A DNA stretch of 64,000 nucleotides from Leucoraja ocellata (Eukaryota). The notes beneath the pieces are model-generated. The model was not told the origin of the DNA and did not search any database. It was given only the letters and a program-made list of their open reading frames with translations. Both the position numbers and the translations under genes were made by a program. The stretch is taken from NCBI GenBank assembly GCA_036785375.1, contig JAWMAR010000341.1, positions 620,001 through 684,000 on the forward strand. Reading direction: 5' to 3'. Positions 56,301-64,000 of the stretch are shown here, one piece after another (the first letter of the stretch is position 1; the number at the start of each line of letters is the position of its first letter).

Positions 56301-59300
56301 TGAGGAGAGTCATTATTATAAATCAGAGTAAAAAAAACCTGAAACATCAAAAACATGCTTAGTTACCAGCAAGCAGCAAGATAAGAAGTCAGCTAGTGCT
56401 GTATAAAAACTGGCAAGCAGCACTCTAATCACCAAATTAAGGTCACTTTGGGGCATCTGTTAAAACTGTGGTATATTAGGCAATTCAACAAACAAGAGTC
56501 CTGTTTGTCTCACTGAGGCAATAAAATAACTTGCAGAAACAGATTGTGATTCGACTGGGTGACATTGAATCAGGTGGAATAATTTAACAGTAAATGGAGA
56601 CAGCTAATGGGATAAACACTAGTGTGGGTCTAATGATTCAAACACCTCAGCTTTATTAGCAACATTCTACAAATGTAAAATGCCACATACAGTAGTCAAC
56701 CCAGGTTAAATATTAGCAAGTTTCGGTTACAAATTCCTTTTCTGGTTTTGGGCATAATGGCAAAGTCAGCACTTCCTGGTACAAAGTCAGCATTTATTGC
56801 CACAACACTGAGCAGATGCTTCAGAATCAACTACACTGTGCATACACCAGACTATCAACAAAGGCACATTCCTGCCACTAAAGTAATAGGAATGAAGTTG
56901 ACATATTTTCACCTTTTTCATAGAATATAAAACATTTGGATTCTTTTTTTCCCCCCAATATTCATATGTTCTCACTGCCATCAGGAATTCAAGTAATATT
57001 CTTGGTGAGTCCAAAATGTTGGTCTGGTAACATAACCAATATACTATAATCACTAGGTACACAAAAATGCTGGAGAAACTCAGCGGGTGCAGCAACATCT
57101 ATGGAGCGAAGGAAATGGGCAACGTTTCGGGCCAAAACCCTTCTTCAGACCCTATAATCACTGGTAGCTCAGGTTATCGCACAAGCTCAGTCTGAAGAGG
57201 AAGGAATATCCTCCCACCTTAGTGATGTGGTGACAACCTTATGTAACTGGTCCTGTTAGGCTAACTAGACCGTTTCTACACTATGCAATCCAATACACTC
57301 TTTATTAGGCCTGATGCACTAACAGATAGACCTGCATAATATATTACATTGCATTTGGACCAAAGAATAGCCAATTAGCCCAACAGGACCACCTACTCCA
57401 CTCTAGCCTCATACCAGAATTGCATGGACCAACATAGTCCTTTATTCCCTCCTTCCTCATTTATAGGGTACAATCAAACTATTTCTTCTGAATTCCCCTT
57501 TGAATTTCTTGACAGTACTGAGATGATACTGATGGTACTGAAGAACTGTCCTTCAAAAGGCCTTGTGGCACTTAAGCAATCTGGTCTCGTGGCTTAGGCT
57601 GACATCATATCGTTCAACCCACCAGATCTTTCTAAGGGACAGGATCCAGTTGATTATAATATTCCCAAAAGAAATACAGATAATTTTCAAAATCTAGGTT
57701 TAACCATGTCACAACATGGTACACAGCCAAAAACAACTTTCTGCAGGTTTACATTATCAGCCATCTTACTTCACTGACTTCCCCACTAACAACATAGGCT
57801 CTCCCACAAAATAGAAAAGGGGTCTTTTCTTACCTCTATACTGATATTGACCATTATAATAATCTGCATAGTAACCAGCATAAGCCTCTCGTCCACTTCT
57901 TCCACTGTAGGGGTCTTCAGTGTATCCTTGCCTGAGAAGATTAGCAAACGGAGGGAAAATGTTATCGAAAGTTTTTATGCACAGCCTGTCCACTGAGGAT
58001 TCACATAAGGGCAGCAGAAACAACTGCTCCCGACAACAGCTTGCTGAGACATTGATCTCATTCATTGCCGCAGCATCACACAGATCAACAAATGGAGGGG
58101 TAGACACGGGGTAAAACCAATTGTCCAGAATTAAACTGGAATTTAAAAAAAGTGAAATTAAGGGTACCTAACAGAATGAGAGCAGATGCATAACATAGGT
58201 GGGGGAGGGCAGTAGCAAGAAACAATATCCAATCAATTTGACGAAGGGACTTTGACCTGAAACGTTACCCATTTCTCCTCCCTCTCTACTTGGCTACGCA
58301 GTCATGGGTGTACAGGGAGTAGAGCAAAGGAATGAGTACACAACCCTGAGGGGCACTGGCATGAAGGATCAGGATGAAGGAAATGTTTAACTGACTGAGG
58401 TCTGCCAGTCAGAAAGTCCAGTAGGCAGTTGCTGATGGATGCTCCAAGGCAAACCTACAGAAATTTGGAGATGAGTTATTCAGCCATTACAATGTTGTGG
58501 GATATCTGTAATCAATGAATCGCATAATGTCATAGGCGTTCTTATTATCAAGCTGATCTAAGGCTGAATGCAATGCCAGAGAGATGGCATTCTCCATCGG
58601 CCTATTTTACATGCAAATTGCAAGTGGACTAGATTGCTCAGAAGACTGACACAGATGTGAACCATTACCAGTCTTCCAAAGCACTTCACTAAGGTCAATG
58701 CTAGAGCGAAGGGAAGTAGTCATCGAGTCAGGTCACTTTATTTTTCTTGGGGAATGGAATGATGGTGGTTTCCTTGAAGCAGATGGAACTGAAAATTATT
58801 AAGTGATAGGTTGAAGATGATGGTGGCCGGTTGATTGGCGCATTATTTCAAAACCCACCCAGGGACTCCATCCAGGCCAGCTGCTTTCCAGACGTACATG
58901 GCAAGTCATAAATGCACACAGAACAAAGAATAGTACAGCCCAGCACCAGGCCCTTCAGCCCACATGCCTGTGCAAAACACAATACCAAGAGCCTCTGACT
59001 TGTTTTGAAATTCTCCCTTGATATCATTGCAAAGATCAAGTTTGGCCAACTTGCAGCGTAGGGTCATCCTCTGGAGAGCCTGGGACCTGGCCTTTAGCAG
59101 AGAGCAAATCTCCCTATTCATCCAAGGTTTCTGGTTAAAATGGACCGTCGTTGACTTTACTGATGTGCAGAGAAGGAATGCCAGGTTTGGGGAGCGCAAT
59201 AATTAATGACTATTCAGTGATTTGGAAATGATCCCAACTGCCTGCTCATCCTTCTAGGTAGTGGAGACCATGGCTAGTCAAGGTAACGAAAGTAACCGGC

Positions 59301-62300
59301 ATGGGTATCAGATAAACCTGCAGGGGTAGGAGATTGCAACCTTCACGTGGTCCACCCCGTTTCGACTAATGCAATCAACCCGACGTGCACAAACAAAAGA
59401 TCAAGTCAAGAGAGTTTATTGTCACGTGTCCCAGATAGAACAATAAAATTCTTGCTTGCTGCAGCACAAAAGAGTATTGTAAGCATAAATACAGATCAGT
59501 TAAATGTGTCTATATAGCATAGACCATATATATACACACACACACACATAGATAAACAGATAAAATGGAATAGGCTGTTATAGTTCATCGTTTGTTTGAT
59601 GGCAAGTTTAATAGCCTGATGGTTGTGGGGAAGAAGCTGTTCCTGAACCTGGATGTACCAGATTTCAGGCCGAATAGAATAGACCAAGTTGACCTACAAC
59701 TTTAGGCTGTGCACGCCAAACGCAAGAAGAAGAAGAAGAAGATAAACCTGCGGTGGGCTCAGTTACAATGTCCCACATTGGTCAATACATCATTTGGTTG
59801 TCAAGATTCATAATCAATGAGGCGAGGAAAGATCAGATTTTTAGGGAAGGGGCAAAACAAAGAAGCAGATTAAAACATTCTAAAACAATCCTAAAGAAAT
59901 CTAATAGATGCATCAACTGAAAAGCTGTCATTAGCTACTAAGAATAATAAACAGGCTCCCTGTTATGAAGTGACAATGAACATACCTAGAGGATGGTCTG
60001 TCAGAAGATTGACTTGTTCTGGAGCTGGGTCGACTGGTCCTTTCCCTCTCTTGGTCCTTGGAACCTGCATTATTAGCATCGTACCTGGCATACTGGGCGT
60101 TGTAACGCCGGTATGGATCACCCTGAAGAACAAGCACAATTTAAAACTTGGGTTCTGGCAACAGATCAAAGCTAACAAAATAAAACAAGTTTCAATTGGT
60201 TGATTCCCGACAAAACCTTCGACCAACATCAACAAAACATATAATGACAGCATCTCGAGTGCTCTGGCAGAACTTGCTTTGTGCAATTTACTGACCTGCT
60301 TCATCATAGCATGCCCATATTTTAAGTCCCGCCGTACAGGTGCCTAAAGGCACAATGGGCAGCATGTAAATCAAGTTCCCTCTATTAGCCCCGTTCATCT
60401 CAATCTCGATCCTCTATTCTATAGGCCTCAGAAATCAACACGGTGAGCATTTCTGACTATGCTTTGATCGATGAGTGGTCGTAGCTTCTCCAGCTCTTCT
60501 AACTGCCCAGCCTTGAAGCAGCTTCTTGAATCTCCCAAAAGCTCCCTCAATTCTCATTTGCGATGCTCCAGTTTCATGAAGCTTTTTCAACACCTCTTCA
60601 TAAGTACCAGTGCCAAATTTAATATGATCCCCAGTGCTCCGCGAAGCTTGTGCTGGGTGCAGCAGAAGAGTGGATGGAGTCAGAGGATAAGAGGCTACAG
60701 GGGTGAATAAAATAAAACATAAACATGCCCCCAACCTAGCCACCACCTCCCTTGATTATGAGCAATTTATATAACTGCCGAATAAAGTGATAACGATAAC
60801 GGTAAAAAAAAAAAGGCAAGCGTTCAGTTACCTGATAATATGGATGGTTGCCTCTGGAACTCATTGGTGGATAAGGCAACTGTTGACCAACTCTGGGATC
60901 CACAGGTGGGTAGGATGGGTAAGGCACTGCATATGCCTGCTGAGGATCCGTGCCGTAATCCTGATACAGGTACGGATATGGATAGCTGTAGCCCACCTGC
61001 GGCAGCCCCTGAGGATACGGCTGCTGCAGTGGCACCTCCTGATGCGAGGGCAGCTGGGAGGCTGCTGCTGCTGCTGCTGTTGTTACAGGAACCTGAGCCA
61101 CTGATTGCTGCTGTGTGGCAGGCTGGGCAGAAGCCAACTCTGGGTACCCATAGCCCACAGGTGCGCCATGACTGCTGGCCAGCACCGAGCCTGGCTGATG
61201 CTGGTCAGAGTCATGAGCCGTGGGTGGGAGGGGCGGGGGTACTGCCTGTTGCCCCGTCATTGTGGCCATCGGCTGCTGCTGCTGTTGGACATCTTTGGTG
61301 ACCTGCAGATAGAAACCTGGTTTGTCATTAATGCTGAGCCCTGCCACGTACGTCTGGCAAGGAGGAAGGTGCTGTGTGGTATTATTAAGTGGCAGGGAAG
61401 CAGGTTGATTAGCATTGGCGATGGACTGATTCGGTGGAGAGCGACGCAAGGTGAAATCAAGCAGCTCACAGTTGGCAGATGACTCAGGCTGATGAAAACC
61501 TGGATTTCTTACATCGTCTTTACTGATGTCACTGCGTGGCTGAAGAGCGGAGGTCGGGGCAATTATGGTTGCGCCAGGTACTCGGTTAGAGGGGGGGCTG
61601 GCAGCAGGGGTGCTCGTGTCCCTTGTTGGTGGTCCTCCACCTGCAAACCTCAGGTCGAGGTGACCGTCTGCAGCCAGATTGAGTGGTGTCTGGGCAGGTG
61701 GCGATCCGAGCGCAGTGGCAAGGCCAGCAGCTGGCGGTGCAGGGCTCGCAAAGGAAACGCTTTGGCCGTCGCCTCGATCTCGCAGAGGCTGGTCGGGGCT
61801 GGACTTTGGAGCAGAGGAACTGGTCTGCAGAGGCCGAGCGAGTAGCACAGGTGGGTTTGGCGCAGCCAGAGATGGCATCAGCAGTGTGGCGTAGCTGGAA
61901 CTTGCCTGGCCTTTGAGGGCTACACCTTTAGGTGCTTGGGGAGGATTCTCCATGTTGCCCACGAGCACTGGGTAGCTCGCTTCCTTGCTGCCATCTTGCG
62001 GAGGTGGGCCAACCTCAGCACAGGGTTCCTTGGCTGCTGTGGGCACAGCTGGAGCAGCTAGCGCCAGCACAATCCCGGCAGTGAAGTTCGGCAGCTCGTT
62101 CTGTGCCCACAGGGTGGCAGCTGGGCTCTCCGCTTTTGCACGGGCGCCGTGCATTCTCAAAGGTGTTCTCTTCTCTGACATCTCTGGCATGGGTGGCAAC
62201 ATACTTTCAGGAGCCGCTGGGCCTGCATACAGGTTTGAGCGAGTGTGCGGGATTGTGATGTTTTCCAAGTTGTCGGGTGGTTGTTCTAGGTTGCCTGGGG

Positions 62301-64000
62301 AGATATCTGATGCAGCTTGCTGCTGCCCCACAGTGCTGACTGCGGCCTGGCCCAGCTCCATCACCAGGCTTGCTTGATCCACTTCCGCACCCTTGACTGC
62401 GAACTGCCCGTGTGGCCTCACGGGCTCAAACGAGCTGTTGGCGCTGGCTTGGAAGGTGGCCATCGGCTTTGGAGATGTGGGATTGGTGGGATGCGGCAAC
62501 TGGCTGTAATACATAGTCCGCCCAGCGCTCTCCACCTCCCTGCCCGGATAGGAGGGGTCCTGACCGAGCGGGGAAGTGTCTATCTGCTCAAAGAAGCAGG
62601 AGACAGCATCGGTCGGTGGCTTCCCGCTCTCCTGCTGGATGAAAGTGTTCGGCGGAAGTTGGGAGCGCCGCAGACTTGAGCCGCTGCTGTGACTGGTGCT
62701 GCTGTGGTTCGAGGAGATGCTGTCCGATCGCAGAGGGTGAGGTGTCACGTCCGGGGTCTCCTGATTCACAGGTGGTCCGCCTGCTGTTCCAATGTTTTTG
62801 GTGACATGCTGTCCCTGGTTTGCCAAGCCAGGCATGGGCTGGAATCCCAGAGAGATCCTTTCAGGTTCACTGGGCAACACTTCTTGGTTCGGTGCAAATT
62901 CAGAATTCTCGTCATTTTCCAGTGTCAGCCCATCCCCGCCACGCTGAGGCATAGTGGGATCCTTGATCTCAGCAGGGCCTCCAGAACCCTGGATGTAAAC
63001 ACCGTACGGGGCAGGTGGTGGGGGAAGGAAGCCCTGGGCTTCAACACCAGAGGCCCGACCCACTGCCTGTAGCCCTGACTCAGGAGGGGGCAATCCACTG
63101 AAGAACAGACCTTGACTTGGCTGAAAGGCATCTCCAGTCGCAACATCGGCTCCACACTGAAAGTTTCTTGCCAGGGTTTCTTTATTCTCTGCCTCGCCCC
63201 CTTTGAAAAACATAGAAACAGTACCTGGGTCAGAGTCTGGAGGGTGGCCTGACTGTGGGGGGAGACTGTCGGGTCTGGTAGATTGTTGAGGACATGGTTC
63301 TCGTGGGAAACTGTGTGCCCAGTCCTCTGGGTGGGCCAAGCCAGCGCCTGAGAAATTTTGTTGGTGCTGGGATGGGTGGAAGGGAGGTGGCCGACCACTG
63401 TCCTTGCGCTCTCCTCCAGCAAACTGGGCAAAAGACTCTGGCGGTGGATGCTGCTGCTGGCAGAAGCTGCCAGGTGCCGGGTTTTGGTGAGCTGGAAAAG
63501 GTGGCAGCTGGGCTGGAGAGTAGTAACTGCCGAAGCCCTGAGTCTGGGGGTCACTGGGTTGAAAGTAGTTTTGGACGGAGGGAGGCCGACTGCCGTGACT
63601 CGCCACCCACTGGGAGGAGGTGCTTGGCTGGAGCTGTGGTGGGAAAGCCGGTGCGCCAGGAGGAAAAGGAAGCGGTTCTTGCCCGTGGGAGTTCCTTGCT
63701 TGGGAAGGGGCGGCGCCGTGACGTGGCCCAAACTCGCCGCCTTCTGGCCCTAGCCCCGTGTGAAAGTACGAGGGCTCGGGGGGTAGGCCCTGCCCGGCGT
63801 CAGGAGGGGACGCGGGGAAGAACTGGCCATCACCAAAGCGTGGCATCGGGGCAAGAGGCGCCGCCGGTGCACCACATGGTTCTGACCGCTCGCCCGGTGC
63901 GGTGGGCTGCCCGGGAAATGACCCCTGTGGGTTGTGCAAAGTGTCTGCGGGCCACCGAGGTGGAGCGTGGCTCCCGTCTTGCTGACTCAACAAAGGTGGA
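29276..64000 (-). CDS. SEC16A: Protein transport protein Sec16A (ER exit-site scaffold), 29 exons in window, 5' end beyond window edge
   Basis: Long Pro/Gln-rich exon with GNLEQPPDN and [14 protein letters not shown]; Arg/Tyr-rich ERES-localisation region; central conserved domain ([40 protein letters not shown]); C-terminal [11 protein letters not shown] and RYVDVLNP; phases consistent. Confidence 0.96.
29598..29803. mobile_element. Tc1/mariner MITE (two ~95-bp TIRs, almost no spacer)
   Basis: TA|CAGTGGCTTGCAA...TTGCAAGCCACTG|TA. Confidence 0.88.
30678..30749 (-). CDS. SEC16A: SEC16A exon ([24 protein letters not shown])
   Basis: cag|..|gtaag; 72 bp. Confidence 0.92.
30860..31260 (+). mobile_element. 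CR1-clade LINE 3' fragment
   Basis: [13 protein letters not shown]-type coding plus tail gaagggccgaatggcctcctcctgcaccta. Confidence 0.8.
32000..32370 (-). mobile_element. CR1-clade LINE 3' fragment
   Basis: KTRGHRL..RG..FKR.....[12 protein letters not shown]. Confidence 0.8.
33074..33162 (-). CDS. SEC16A: SEC16A exon ([12 protein letters not shown]...ANLQAQ)
   Basis: cag|..|gtact; 89 bp. Confidence 0.85.
33811..33945 (-). CDS. SEC16A: SEC16A exon ([11 protein letters not shown]...[20 protein letters not shown])
   Basis: tag|..|gtatg; 135 bp. Confidence 0.94.
35391..35502 (-). CDS. SEC16A: SEC16A exon (SKPLPPPPS...VNRFSRKA)
   Basis: cag|..|gtgag; 112 bp. Confidence 0.92.
35938..36146. mobile_element. 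PIF/Harbinger-type MITE
   Basis: TIR ATGGCCTGTCCCACTTGGCC / GGCCAAGTGGGACAGGCCGT; TAA TSD; CpG-rich interior. Confidence 0.8.
36343..36623. repeat. Palindromic Penelope-tail element with unrelated spacer
   Basis: ~95-bp inverted arms (gaaggaaagaactgcag...agagaaggaatgg). Confidence 0.75.
36760..36816 (-). CDS. SEC16A: SEC16A exon ([19 protein letters not shown])
   Basis: tag|..|gtaag; 57 bp. Confidence 0.94.
37777..37848 (-). CDS. SEC16A: SEC16A exon ([24 protein letters not shown])
   Basis: cag|..|gtgag; 72 bp. Confidence 0.93.
39460..39639 (-). CDS. SEC16A: SEC16A exon ([16 protein letters not shown]...VGKKGK)
   Basis: cag|..|gtaaa; 180 bp. Confidence 0.9.
41024..41071 (-). CDS. SEC16A: SEC16A 48-nt microexon ([16 protein letters not shown]), probably cassette
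   Basis: aagcag|GCC...ATG|gtacg; symmetric phase 0; motif resembles start of next exon. Confidence 0.75.
42201..42301 (-). CDS. SEC16A: SEC16A exon ([33 protein letters not shown])
   Basis: cag|..|gtaag; 101 bp. Confidence 0.88.
42750..43010 (+). mobile_element. HE1/V-SINE-like SINE (diverged)
   Basis: gtggagtttgtatgttctccctgtgacc...gggccgatgggcccgtttccatgctgt. Confidence 0.65.
43295..43543 (-). CDS. SEC16A: SEC16A exon (PHAVLDGRL...VQEQVHVNA)
   Basis: tag|..|gttag; 249 bp, phase 1-1. Confidence 0.85.
44420..44630 (-). CDS. SEC16A: SEC16A exon ([24 protein letters not shown]...GVQLMPA)
   Basis: cag|..|gtatc; 211 bp. Confidence 0.9.
44733..44846 (-). CDS. SEC16A: SEC16A exon ([14 protein letters not shown]...QIK)
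   Basis: aag|..|gtgag; 114 bp. Confidence 0.92.
45538..45678 (-). CDS. SEC16A: SEC16A exon ([24 protein letters not shown]...QLIQ)
   Basis: tag|..|gtagg; 141 bp. Confidence 0.95.
45826..45931 (-). CDS. SEC16A: SEC16A exon ([25 protein letters not shown]...PNFQ)
   Basis: cag|..|gtatg; 106 bp. Confidence 0.95.
47129..47240 (-). CDS. SEC16A: SEC16A exon ([36 protein letters not shown])
   Basis: tag|..|gtgag; 112 bp. Confidence 0.95.
47355..47555. repeat. Older palindromic Penelope-tail element with two back-to-back hammerhead remnants
   Basis: ttcttcagaa|tctgaagac centre; diverged arms. Confidence 0.6.
47969..48086 (-). CDS. SEC16A: SEC16A exon ([21 protein letters not shown]...TMGDTL)
   Basis: cag|..|gtatg; 118 bp. 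Confidence 0.95.
48335..48525 (+). mobile_element. HE1/V-SINE-like SINE, 5'-truncated
   Basis: ccggtttcctcccacacctcaaagatgt...gggcctgtttcc. Confidence 0.7.
48618..48699 (-). CDS. SEC16A: SEC16A exon ([27 protein letters not shown])
   Basis: tag|..|gtgag; 82 bp. Confidence 0.95.
49357..49454 (-). CDS. SEC16A: SEC16A exon ([32 protein letters not shown])
   Basis: cag|..|gtagg; 98 bp. Confidence 0.95.
49583..49822 (-). CDS. SEC16A: SEC16A exon ([12 protein letters not shown]...[13 protein letters not shown])
   Basis: cag|..|gtaat; 240 bp. Confidence 0.95.
50455..50593 (-). CDS. SEC16A: SEC16A exon ([15 protein letters not shown]...[14 protein letters not shown])
   Basis: cag|..|gtgag; 139 bp. 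Confidence 0.94.
50749..50936. repeat. Palindromic Penelope-tail hairpin
   Basis: Near-perfect ~70-bp arms; TSD-like AACATTG(T/C)GTA at 50738-50748 and 50937-50947. Confidence 0.8.
52121..52182 (-). CDS. SEC16A: SEC16A exon ([20 protein letters not shown])
   Basis: cag|..|gtaag; 62 bp. Confidence 0.92.
52510..52652 (-). CDS. SEC16A: SEC16A exon ([14 protein letters not shown]...[15 protein letters not shown])
   Basis: cag|..|gtaca; 143 bp. Confidence 0.93.
52954..53128 (-). CDS. SEC16A: SEC16A exon ([10 protein letters not shown]...TGWQPVET)
   Basis: tag|..|gtatg; 175 bp. Confidence 0.9.
53600..53910 (+). mobile_element. HE1/V-SINE-like SINE
   Basis: gagacccggttcgatcctgac...gggccaaagggcctg. 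Confidence 0.72.
54023..54215 (-). CDS. SEC16A: SEC16A exon ([15 protein letters not shown]...[12 protein letters not shown]...[11 protein letters not shown])
   Basis: tag|..|gtgag; 193 bp. Confidence 0.92.
54597..55075. mobile_element. PIF/Harbinger-type MITE
   Basis: ~50-bp TIR starting AGGGGCTGTCCCACTGCGG; TAA TSD; internal CTTCGACTA subrepeats. Confidence 0.82.
55856..55994 (-). CDS. SEC16A: SEC16A exon ([29 protein letters not shown]...PYGD)
   Basis: cag|..|gtgaa; 139 bp; phase fits. Confidence 0.9.
57055..57151 (-). mobile_element. 97-bp Penelope pLTR-derived insertion with hammerhead core
   Basis: 11-bp TSD CTATAATCACT (57044-57054, 57152-57162). Confidence 0.75.
57834..57931 (-). 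CDS. SEC16A: SEC16A exon ([32 protein letters not shown])
   Basis: cag|..|gtaag; 98 bp. Confidence 0.9.
58285..58880 (-). mobile_element. Degenerate Rex1-type reverse transcriptase fragment
   Basis: Minus-strand remnants resembling GAPQGCVL, DPLQFA and VMKCFE motifs. Confidence 0.6.
59323..59376 (+). ncRNA. Minimal HDV/CPEB3-like self-cleaving ribozyme motif
   Basis: P1 GGGGTAG/CCACCCC (one A-C mismatch), P2 GATTGCA/TGCAATC, P3 ACC/GGT, L3 TTCACGT, GT, stub P4, J4/2 CTAA, all in HDV nested double-pseudoknot order. Confidence 0.8.
59404..59671 (-). mobile_element. Rex1/L2-type LINE 3' fragment nested in the ribozyme retroposon
   Basis: Minus strand reads ...[16 protein letters not shown]-like end and tail gtgacaataaac; similar tail at 13330-13610. 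Confidence 0.55.
59986..60122 (-). CDS. SEC16A: SEC16A exon ([11 protein letters not shown]...[15 protein letters not shown])
   Basis: cag|..|gtatg; 137 bp. Confidence 0.92.
60832..64000 (-). CDS. SEC16A: SEC16A large N-terminal exon (truncated by window edge)
   Basis: >1050 open codons to the edge; donor TATCAG|gtaac at 60832. Confidence 0.95.

Follow-up and report, generated by a model that had tools for sequence, protein, structure and literature searches.

A short, internally deleted LINE derivative with a predicted minimal HDV-like ribozyme head, dispersed in some ten thousand copies through a skate genome

An intron of the skate gene SEC16A carries, on the strand opposite to the gene (a placement made by eye from the flanking exons), a compact sequence that ends in an (AAG)n tail, is bordered by a short duplication and is interrupted by a piece of another retrotransposon. 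What kind of element is this, where does its head come from, and what moved it? A sequence-only reading of the 64-kb stretch of Leucoraja ocellata DNA in which it lies (hereafter the window) had proposed a ~150-nt retroposon with a ribozyme head, a 3' stem recognised by the reverse transcriptase (RT) of a partner LINE, and an autonomous form of that partner elsewhere in the genome. The outer anatomy held up on inspection (Table 1): the duplicated 12-mer has just two exact copies in the 64 kb, one at each end of the element (four matches at ≤1 mismatch, against 0.41 expected), the AAG tail stands directly ahead of its second copy, and the two 8-mers said to be complementary are indeed reverse complements. 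The nested fragment placed at ~59404-59671 is present and is a LINE 3' end, with its edges now refined to 59401-59670; the left half of the interrupted element runs to 59403/4, the insert to 59670, seven junction letters follow (59671-77), and the right half begins at 59678. With the insert removed, 59323-59739 is a compact unit as claimed, of ~143 nt rather than ~150.

Table 1. Features of the window copy, the host gene and the head-only inversions of the partner LINE (positions are those of the window, except in the last row)
Feature	Position	Strand	Remarks
5' copy of target-site duplication (TSD)	59310..59321	+	12 bp, exact match to 59740-59751
Predicted 54-nt HDV-like ribozyme without P4	59323..59376	+	descriptor match; family 5' junctions at G1
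Ribozyme P1	59323-29/59352-58		G6A mismatch at 59328 in window copy
Ribozyme P2	59332-38/59370-76		
Ribozyme P3	59339-41/59349-51		
Ribozyme L3	59342-48		
Ribozyme P1.1 pair	C59344-G59359		
Catalytic C	59366		
Remainder of LINE-derived 5' part	59377..59403	+	match to LINE 5' end
5' arm of proposed stem	59384-59391	+	inside LINE-derived 5' part
Nested later insertion, 3' end of a LINE presumed Rex1/Babar-like	59401..59670	-	short-repeat tail, 4-letter overlap with target
Linker	59678..59688	+	partial duplicate of head end plus a few further letters; from alignment and folds
LINE-derived 3' part	59689..59723	+	last ORF codons, stop codon 59703-05, ~18-nt 3' UTR
3' arm of proposed stem	59708-15	+	in ~18-nt 3' UTR
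(AAG)n tail	59724..59739	+	five AAG units and one A, running into TSD
3' copy of TSD	59740..59751	+	12 bp, exact
SEC16A large exon	60736..63999	-	best named match 91% identical, skate SEC16A
SEC16A exons	59987-60124, 60736-63999, ~57800-57950	-	
Head-only inversions in LINE copies (~75 nt)	L084:4303-4369, L110:2429-2497, L114:2095-2156, L133:1493-1561		

The nested piece is the 5'-truncated, minus-strand 3' end of a LINE with at least 5,610 first-look candidates in the genome. Longer copies of this LINE code for an RT with 50-58% identity to a different LINE ORF of the same genome, and from its C-terminal motifs we take the LINE to be Rex1/Babar. Joints that skip the insert are present in both DNA and RNA runs. 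The window copy is thus an inert one that landed antisense in the SEC16A intron and was later split by the Rex1-like fragment. Upstream of it lies an older repeat (58600-58890; 72-78% identity, 831 first-look candidates).

We searched the 3.44-Gb assembly with two short motifs. A 20-nt head motif gave 14,902 matches at ≤1 mismatch (reversed control, 1) and a 21-nt tail motif 15,589 (reversed control, 0). These counts omit diverged copies but take in assembly duplicates, which were 14 of the 70 sampled loci. For the head sample, 70 of 100 listed places were fetched, all of them exact matches on a single contig, C1, with most members of two tandem arrays passed over; dropping the 14 duplicates left 56 independent loci. 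Full contiguous head-and-tail units make up 48 of these, the others being shorter or interrupted (4), of another kind (3) or a LINE 5' end (1); by eye, four of the seven shorter, interrupted or other loci also carry both ends. The tail sample (30 fetched, 5 duplicates dropped) yielded the short element at 24 of 25 independent loci and a LINE end at the remaining one. A TSD was detected in 39 of the 48 full units, with a length of 9-17 bp and a mode of 12 (11-13 bp in 28 of 39), and the 5' junction falls at G1 or G2 in 32 of the 39 (23 and 9, respectively, an assignment made ambiguous by G matches). Tails comprise 2-8 AAG units, and the TSD starts with the tail-like letters AG, GA or AA in 24 of 35 insertions, as expected from microhomology priming; we found no strong target-site consensus. 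We conclude that the element was amplified as a unit, with TSDs and without an ORF. Directly 5' of G1, 28 of 35 insertions have a C or a T. Copies ~2 kb apart form two mirror-image tandem arrays (G000:C1:19261562-19279232 and 19408538-19431507); contig C1 has large inverted duplications, which may be assembly artefacts.

The joint between head and tail also occurs in DNA of three related organisms and in one RNA run, together with deletion variants that have longer 5' parts. Such variants exist within the skate assembly as well (L012, L118, L019/L023 and L021, with further joints in other runs), either 77-130 nt long or with a longer 5' part, which implies that deletion happened repeatedly at about the same two breakpoints. 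The sequence-only reading had looked to an empty orthologous site with a single TSD copy. Neither a second copy nor an empty version of the locus was found in the assembly, and no flank-to-flank joint was among the matches listed for the three related organisms; contigs of all three enter the element from both flanks, so the filled site appears to be shared. Support at these junctions is at least 31 letters on both sides at both junctions in X12 alone and at the 3' junction in X9, and 23-28 letters otherwise.

The head owes nothing visible to a small RNA gene, as had been claimed: a tRNA scan found none, and tRNA, 5S and SRP gave no Rfam match at gathering or at E≤10. Its source is a LINE. At locus L013 the head match runs on into coding sequence, and at L031 it is followed by an APE domain, an RT, a CCHC-like (Cys/His-rich) end and the same tail, within a flanking duplication. 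Other copies give this LINE a length of ~3.07 kb and a single ORF that stops ~18 nt before the tail, and it has its first ~80 nt and last ~45 nt in common with the short element. The autonomous partner that had been predicted, a long element with the shared tail and both APE and RT, is therefore present in this genome. Exo_endo_phos matched above the Pfam cut-off and a partial RVT_1 below it; RNase H gave no Pfam match in four post-RT fragments of family A, and there is no room for one ahead of the stop. About 90 of 150 scored RT matches belong to the partner family (71-93% amino acid identity); the remainder, at ~55%, come from a second family. No intact partner ORF was found among the fetched loci, where all copies are broken or decayed. 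The linker was absent from the LINE 3' ends sampled; in folds, its letters complete a hairpin between 59686-91 and 59697-702. Non-CpG divergence is 1.5-5% within the short subfamilies and 4.5% among the LINE pieces, which indicates similar ages. Because the ends are shared and the ages similar, we infer that the LINE protein mobilised the short element in trans. The second family (B, 55% amino acid identity) was considered as a partner and rejected on account of its different (TAAA)n end. Loci L100-L106 represent a second, younger Vingi-like LINE family with copies 95-98% alike, ORF stretches of up to 645 aa and a (TAAA)n tail.

The element is therefore not a SINE proper, with Pol III transcription and a tRNA, 5S or 7SL head; it is a short internally deleted LINE derivative (SIDE) of the known RIME/NARTc/Vingi-N type, and the bipartite build, HDV-like head, (AAG)n tail and ~12-bp TSD agree with its earlier comparison to Ingi/Vingi derivatives. 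That two independent repeats came to lie by chance around the Rex fragment would account for the interrupted look of the window copy, and is refuted for practical purposes by the contiguous units that dominate both unbiased samples, by head and tail being contiguous at 27 of 28 non-self loci among the first genome matches, and by the head-tail joints in DNA of three other organisms and in RNA. Which clade the partner belongs to bears less on the mechanism. In the accessible parts of the literature, the definition of Vingi is a compact LINE with a single ORF and, unlike Ingi, no RNase H (PMC13708176), and Vingi makes internal-deletion derivatives (PMC5786205). The partner has a compact single ORF, APE followed by RT (in broken copies) and no RNase H, and we consider it probably a Vingi. 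It is unlikely that the partner is instead an RTE-clade LINE, a change that would leave the mechanism as it is: RTE elements, too, have a single ORF, may bear an HDV ribozyme and give rise to bipartite derivatives (PMC5786205, in the part available), and there was no named Vingi protein among the partner homologues found, but the length of ~3.07 kb fits Vingi-2_Gav (3128 bp), and the head skeleton is the same as that of the Vingi-2_Gav 5' end. The C-terminal Cys/His knuckle and very short 3' UTR, which are traits of Ingi/Vingi, fit as well. A PDB search with the partner returned distant RTs only. A protein of the eel Synaphobranchus kaupii (P0010) is 69% identical over 66% of the partner RT fragment, above most matches, and horizontal transfer is possible. 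Human MER6 is not Vingi-derived; it is listed as Mariner.

The head fits a double pseudoknot of HDV type, with a loop of 5-6 nt in the place of P4. A descriptor built from published features (PMC6326823, as far as its text was available), and written after the sequence was seen, had a single match in the 64 kb of the window and matched 35 of 48 family copies and none of 2000 shuffles. The nested double pseudoknot of P1 (7 bp, G1-Y), P2, P3 and P1.1 is present, with one P1 mismatch in the window copy that is rare in the family, as are U20 and G25 in L3 and the catalytic C in the C-N-A-A J4/2 (feature list from the same paper). For the intact copy L127, Rfam at E≤10 yields just two matches, both to HDV families, in the right place and on the right strand, at scores below gathering (21.7 against 50 bits and 14.4 against 44 bits) with models that include P4; an Rfam E-value scan of the window copy returned no HDV match, only chance matches, and at the gathering threshold it had no match at all. 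Where subfamilies differ within the ribozyme, the substitutions are tolerable ones: in J1/2, at a pair that goes from U-A to U-G, at the cut site, where G-C replaces G-U, and at the base that flips out after the catalytic C (role as given in the available text of PMC6326823). Positions 12-31 were fixed by the head sampling; tail-selected copies show, by eye, only scattered decay there. Within-genome covariation of the head is not above shuffles, as expected for neutrally decaying copies, and the head folded alone gives z of 0 to -0.5, since pseudoknots are not modelled. The ribozyme head proposed for this element is backed by a predicted fold, by the descriptor match and by 5' junctions at G1 or G2, and would be one of the smallest predicted HDV-type self-cleaving RNAs. 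One poly(A) RNA run (X22; 6% of the run, RNA strand uncertain) contained no pile-up of read starts at G1 and 218 reads that cross the cut site into the flanks; its first-mate strand excess is alike for all repeats in the stretch, and we draw no conclusion on orientation from it.

The claim that the complementary 8-mers form a 3' stem serving as an RT recognition signal finds no support in that form. The arms are complementary, and the stem is predicted in the 3' half of all four copies folded (z of -1.6 to -3.8). It is not local: the 5' arm derives from the LINE 5' end, and in the LINE the arms lie ~3 kb apart. Arm covariation is no higher than in shuffles, with no compensatory change in support. 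The stem has 11 bp in the oldest and commonest subfamily and 8 bp in the younger subfamilies and the LINE, and we reject the idea that it lengthened over time, since the 11-bp form is that of the oldest subfamily. Insertions of the LINE itself offer a further view of the 5' end. Copies often have an inverted 5' end (3 of 17 RT-selected loci), and in four independent insertions the head alone is inverted, the inversion ending at nt ~72-80 with 0.3-2.7 kb missing behind it; a duplication surrounds the whole inverted insertion in L114 (14 bp) and L084 (8 bp). The endpoint coincides with the end of the 5' part of the short element, and the segment after the ribozyme, including its A-rich stretch, corresponds to the place where these inversions were primed. 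This suggests that the RNA's 5' end was kept at the target. Further 5'-inverted, twin-priming-like LINE insertions with large internal gaps were seen at L059/L061/L080, L062, L065/L066, L067/L069 and L098.

Two alternatives concern what the ends do. The head might be mainly an internal promoter or a protein-binding site with an HDV-shaped fold that does not cut efficiently, so that the 5' end marks a transcription start at G1. Trypanosome elements provide a precedent, in that a single stretch of 77 nt serves them as promoter and ribozyme alike, and not every well-folded SIDER copy is active (PMC4035085, in part); besides the missing pile-up of RNA starts at G1, the head lacks P4, has a P1.1 of a single pair and, by eye, has a G37 in the loop that could pair with the catalytic C. 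We regard this as improbable: every subfamily and the LINE itself retain all the catalytic features, activity is known for ribozymes without P4 (PMC6326823, PMC10879173), fast cleavage does not require the second P1.1 pair to be canonical (PMC13635239), and P1.1 tolerates a U-U pair (PMC13635239, PMC4836649; all four papers in the parts available). The second alternative is closer. Both arms are built on the palindrome GTGCAC and are therefore equally a repeated motif, so that, unpaired, they could be direct repeats bound at each end by the LINE protein or a host factor. The lack of compensatory change above shuffles is in line with this, as are the 8 bp, against 11 in the oldest subfamily, to which the match is limited in the LINE and younger subfamilies, and a longest-stem test that reached p<0.01 in two of four copies only. 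Such binding is quite possible, if short of probable, given that the stem is the predicted fold in four of four copies, that the major subfamily stretches it to 11 perfect pairs, and that four LINE insertions were primed just behind the 5' arm, as though this end had been kept close to the target. We lean towards the stem being a pairing of the two RNA ends.

We propose that a LINE derivative of internal-deletion type, probably Vingi, with a P4-less HDV-like head, spreads by trans-mobilisation, and we put the probability of this overall account at roughly 80%. Transcription would be driven by a promoter of the host or by an internal one for Pol II; the ribozyme would cut just 5' of G1 and so give the RNA a precise 5' end; the LINE APE-RT protein would bind the RNA ends in trans and nick the target; priming would use a match of 1-3 letters between the target and the (AAG)n tail; and copying of the RNA to G1 would leave a duplication of ~12 bp.

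Each component has known relatives, compared here with the accessible parts of the papers cited. Closest in build are the hedgehog Vingi-1_EE derivatives (PMC5786205, PMC4494074), which likewise join the 5' and 3' ends of a compact single-ORF RNase H-less LINE, have no RNA-gene head and far outnumber their parent. Trypanosomatid NARTc, RIME and SIDER with the Pr77 hallmark (PMC4035085) also combine the first ~77-80 nt of a LINE, including an HDV-like ribozyme, with its 3' end, but their parent is an Ingi with RNase H and their ribozyme has a P4 helix. R2 SIDEs and R2/R1 SIDEs of Drosophila (PMC3414825) share the ribozyme head, LINE 3' end, precise 5' junctions and mobilisation in trans (presumed for the skate element); the Drosophila elements are site-specific in rDNA, ~500 nt long and few, whereas the skate element is dispersed, ~140 nt long and present in ~10^4 copies. 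Minimal P4-less HDV-like or theta ribozymes (PMC10879173; Riccitelli 2014 via PMC6326823) have the same double pseudoknot with a short loop for P4, but nearly 99% of the matches to them are in Caudoviricetes phages, often beside tRNAs, unlike the skate form at the 5' end of a vertebrate retroposon; with no tRNA and that context, its predicted cleavage site does not lie beside a phage tRNA, as that of a theta ribozyme does. The class of element is itself known. What is new is a predicted P4-less ribozyme en masse in a vertebrate, the head-only 5' inversions and the link between Vingi 5' ends and CPEB3 described below, all of which would surprise specialists. The literature searched contained nothing that connects Vingi with ribozymes, no Vingi family from a skate and no twin priming in Vingi, although part of this may be published or deposited. 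By trimming the LINE template to ~140 nt, the element would mark which cis signals are needed by a Vingi-type protein; development of Vingi for RNA-only gene insertion is under way (PMC13708176, in part). Should the head cut, P4-less HDV ribozymes would gain a natural job, left open for minimal HDV ribozymes in the available text of PMC10879173, and thousands of potential cut sites would lie in skate transcripts.

The comparisons that follow were made by eye with sequences from parts of published supplements. Against the elephant CPEB3 ribozyme (PMC8233481), the skate head has the same numbering to position 38 and an identical L3 (7/7), and all 17 P1-P3 pairs are kept, 10 through changes on both sides and none broken. 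In the major subfamily both L3 and J4/2 are identical to those of the mammalian ribozyme, and P1.1 is one G-C plus a U-U (PMC8233481, PMC4836649); CPEB3 differs in its 7-bp P4, in being single-copy and conserved, and in stems that diverge by compensatory changes. Shared constraints could account for part of this likeness, and part is general to the class, as the R2 primer in PMC3414825 has the same P3. The 5' end of the gharial Vingi-2_Gav (PMC5786205) agrees with the mammalian CPEB3 ribozyme (PMC8233481) at 38 of 40 positions, and nt 61-127 of the alligator SINE2-1_AMi are likewise near-identical to it. The sequence likeness suggests that CPEB3 is a domesticated Vingi 5' end, which is not stated in the available parts of PMC5786205 or PMC8233481. 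Tentatively, Vingi 5' ends may make up an HDV-like ribozyme lineage with, among its members, an active P4-less form of 54 nt at ~10^4 skate sites, a eukaryotic role for minimal ribozymes, with CPEB3 as the lineage's domesticated offshoot and with both RNA ends held together at the target, which would explain the make-up of the short element and the head-only inversions primed at nt ~72-80. In 2021 the CPEB3 ribozyme was described as not found outside mammals (PMC8233481, in part), and Vingi 5' ends are thereby pointed to as its missing outgroup.
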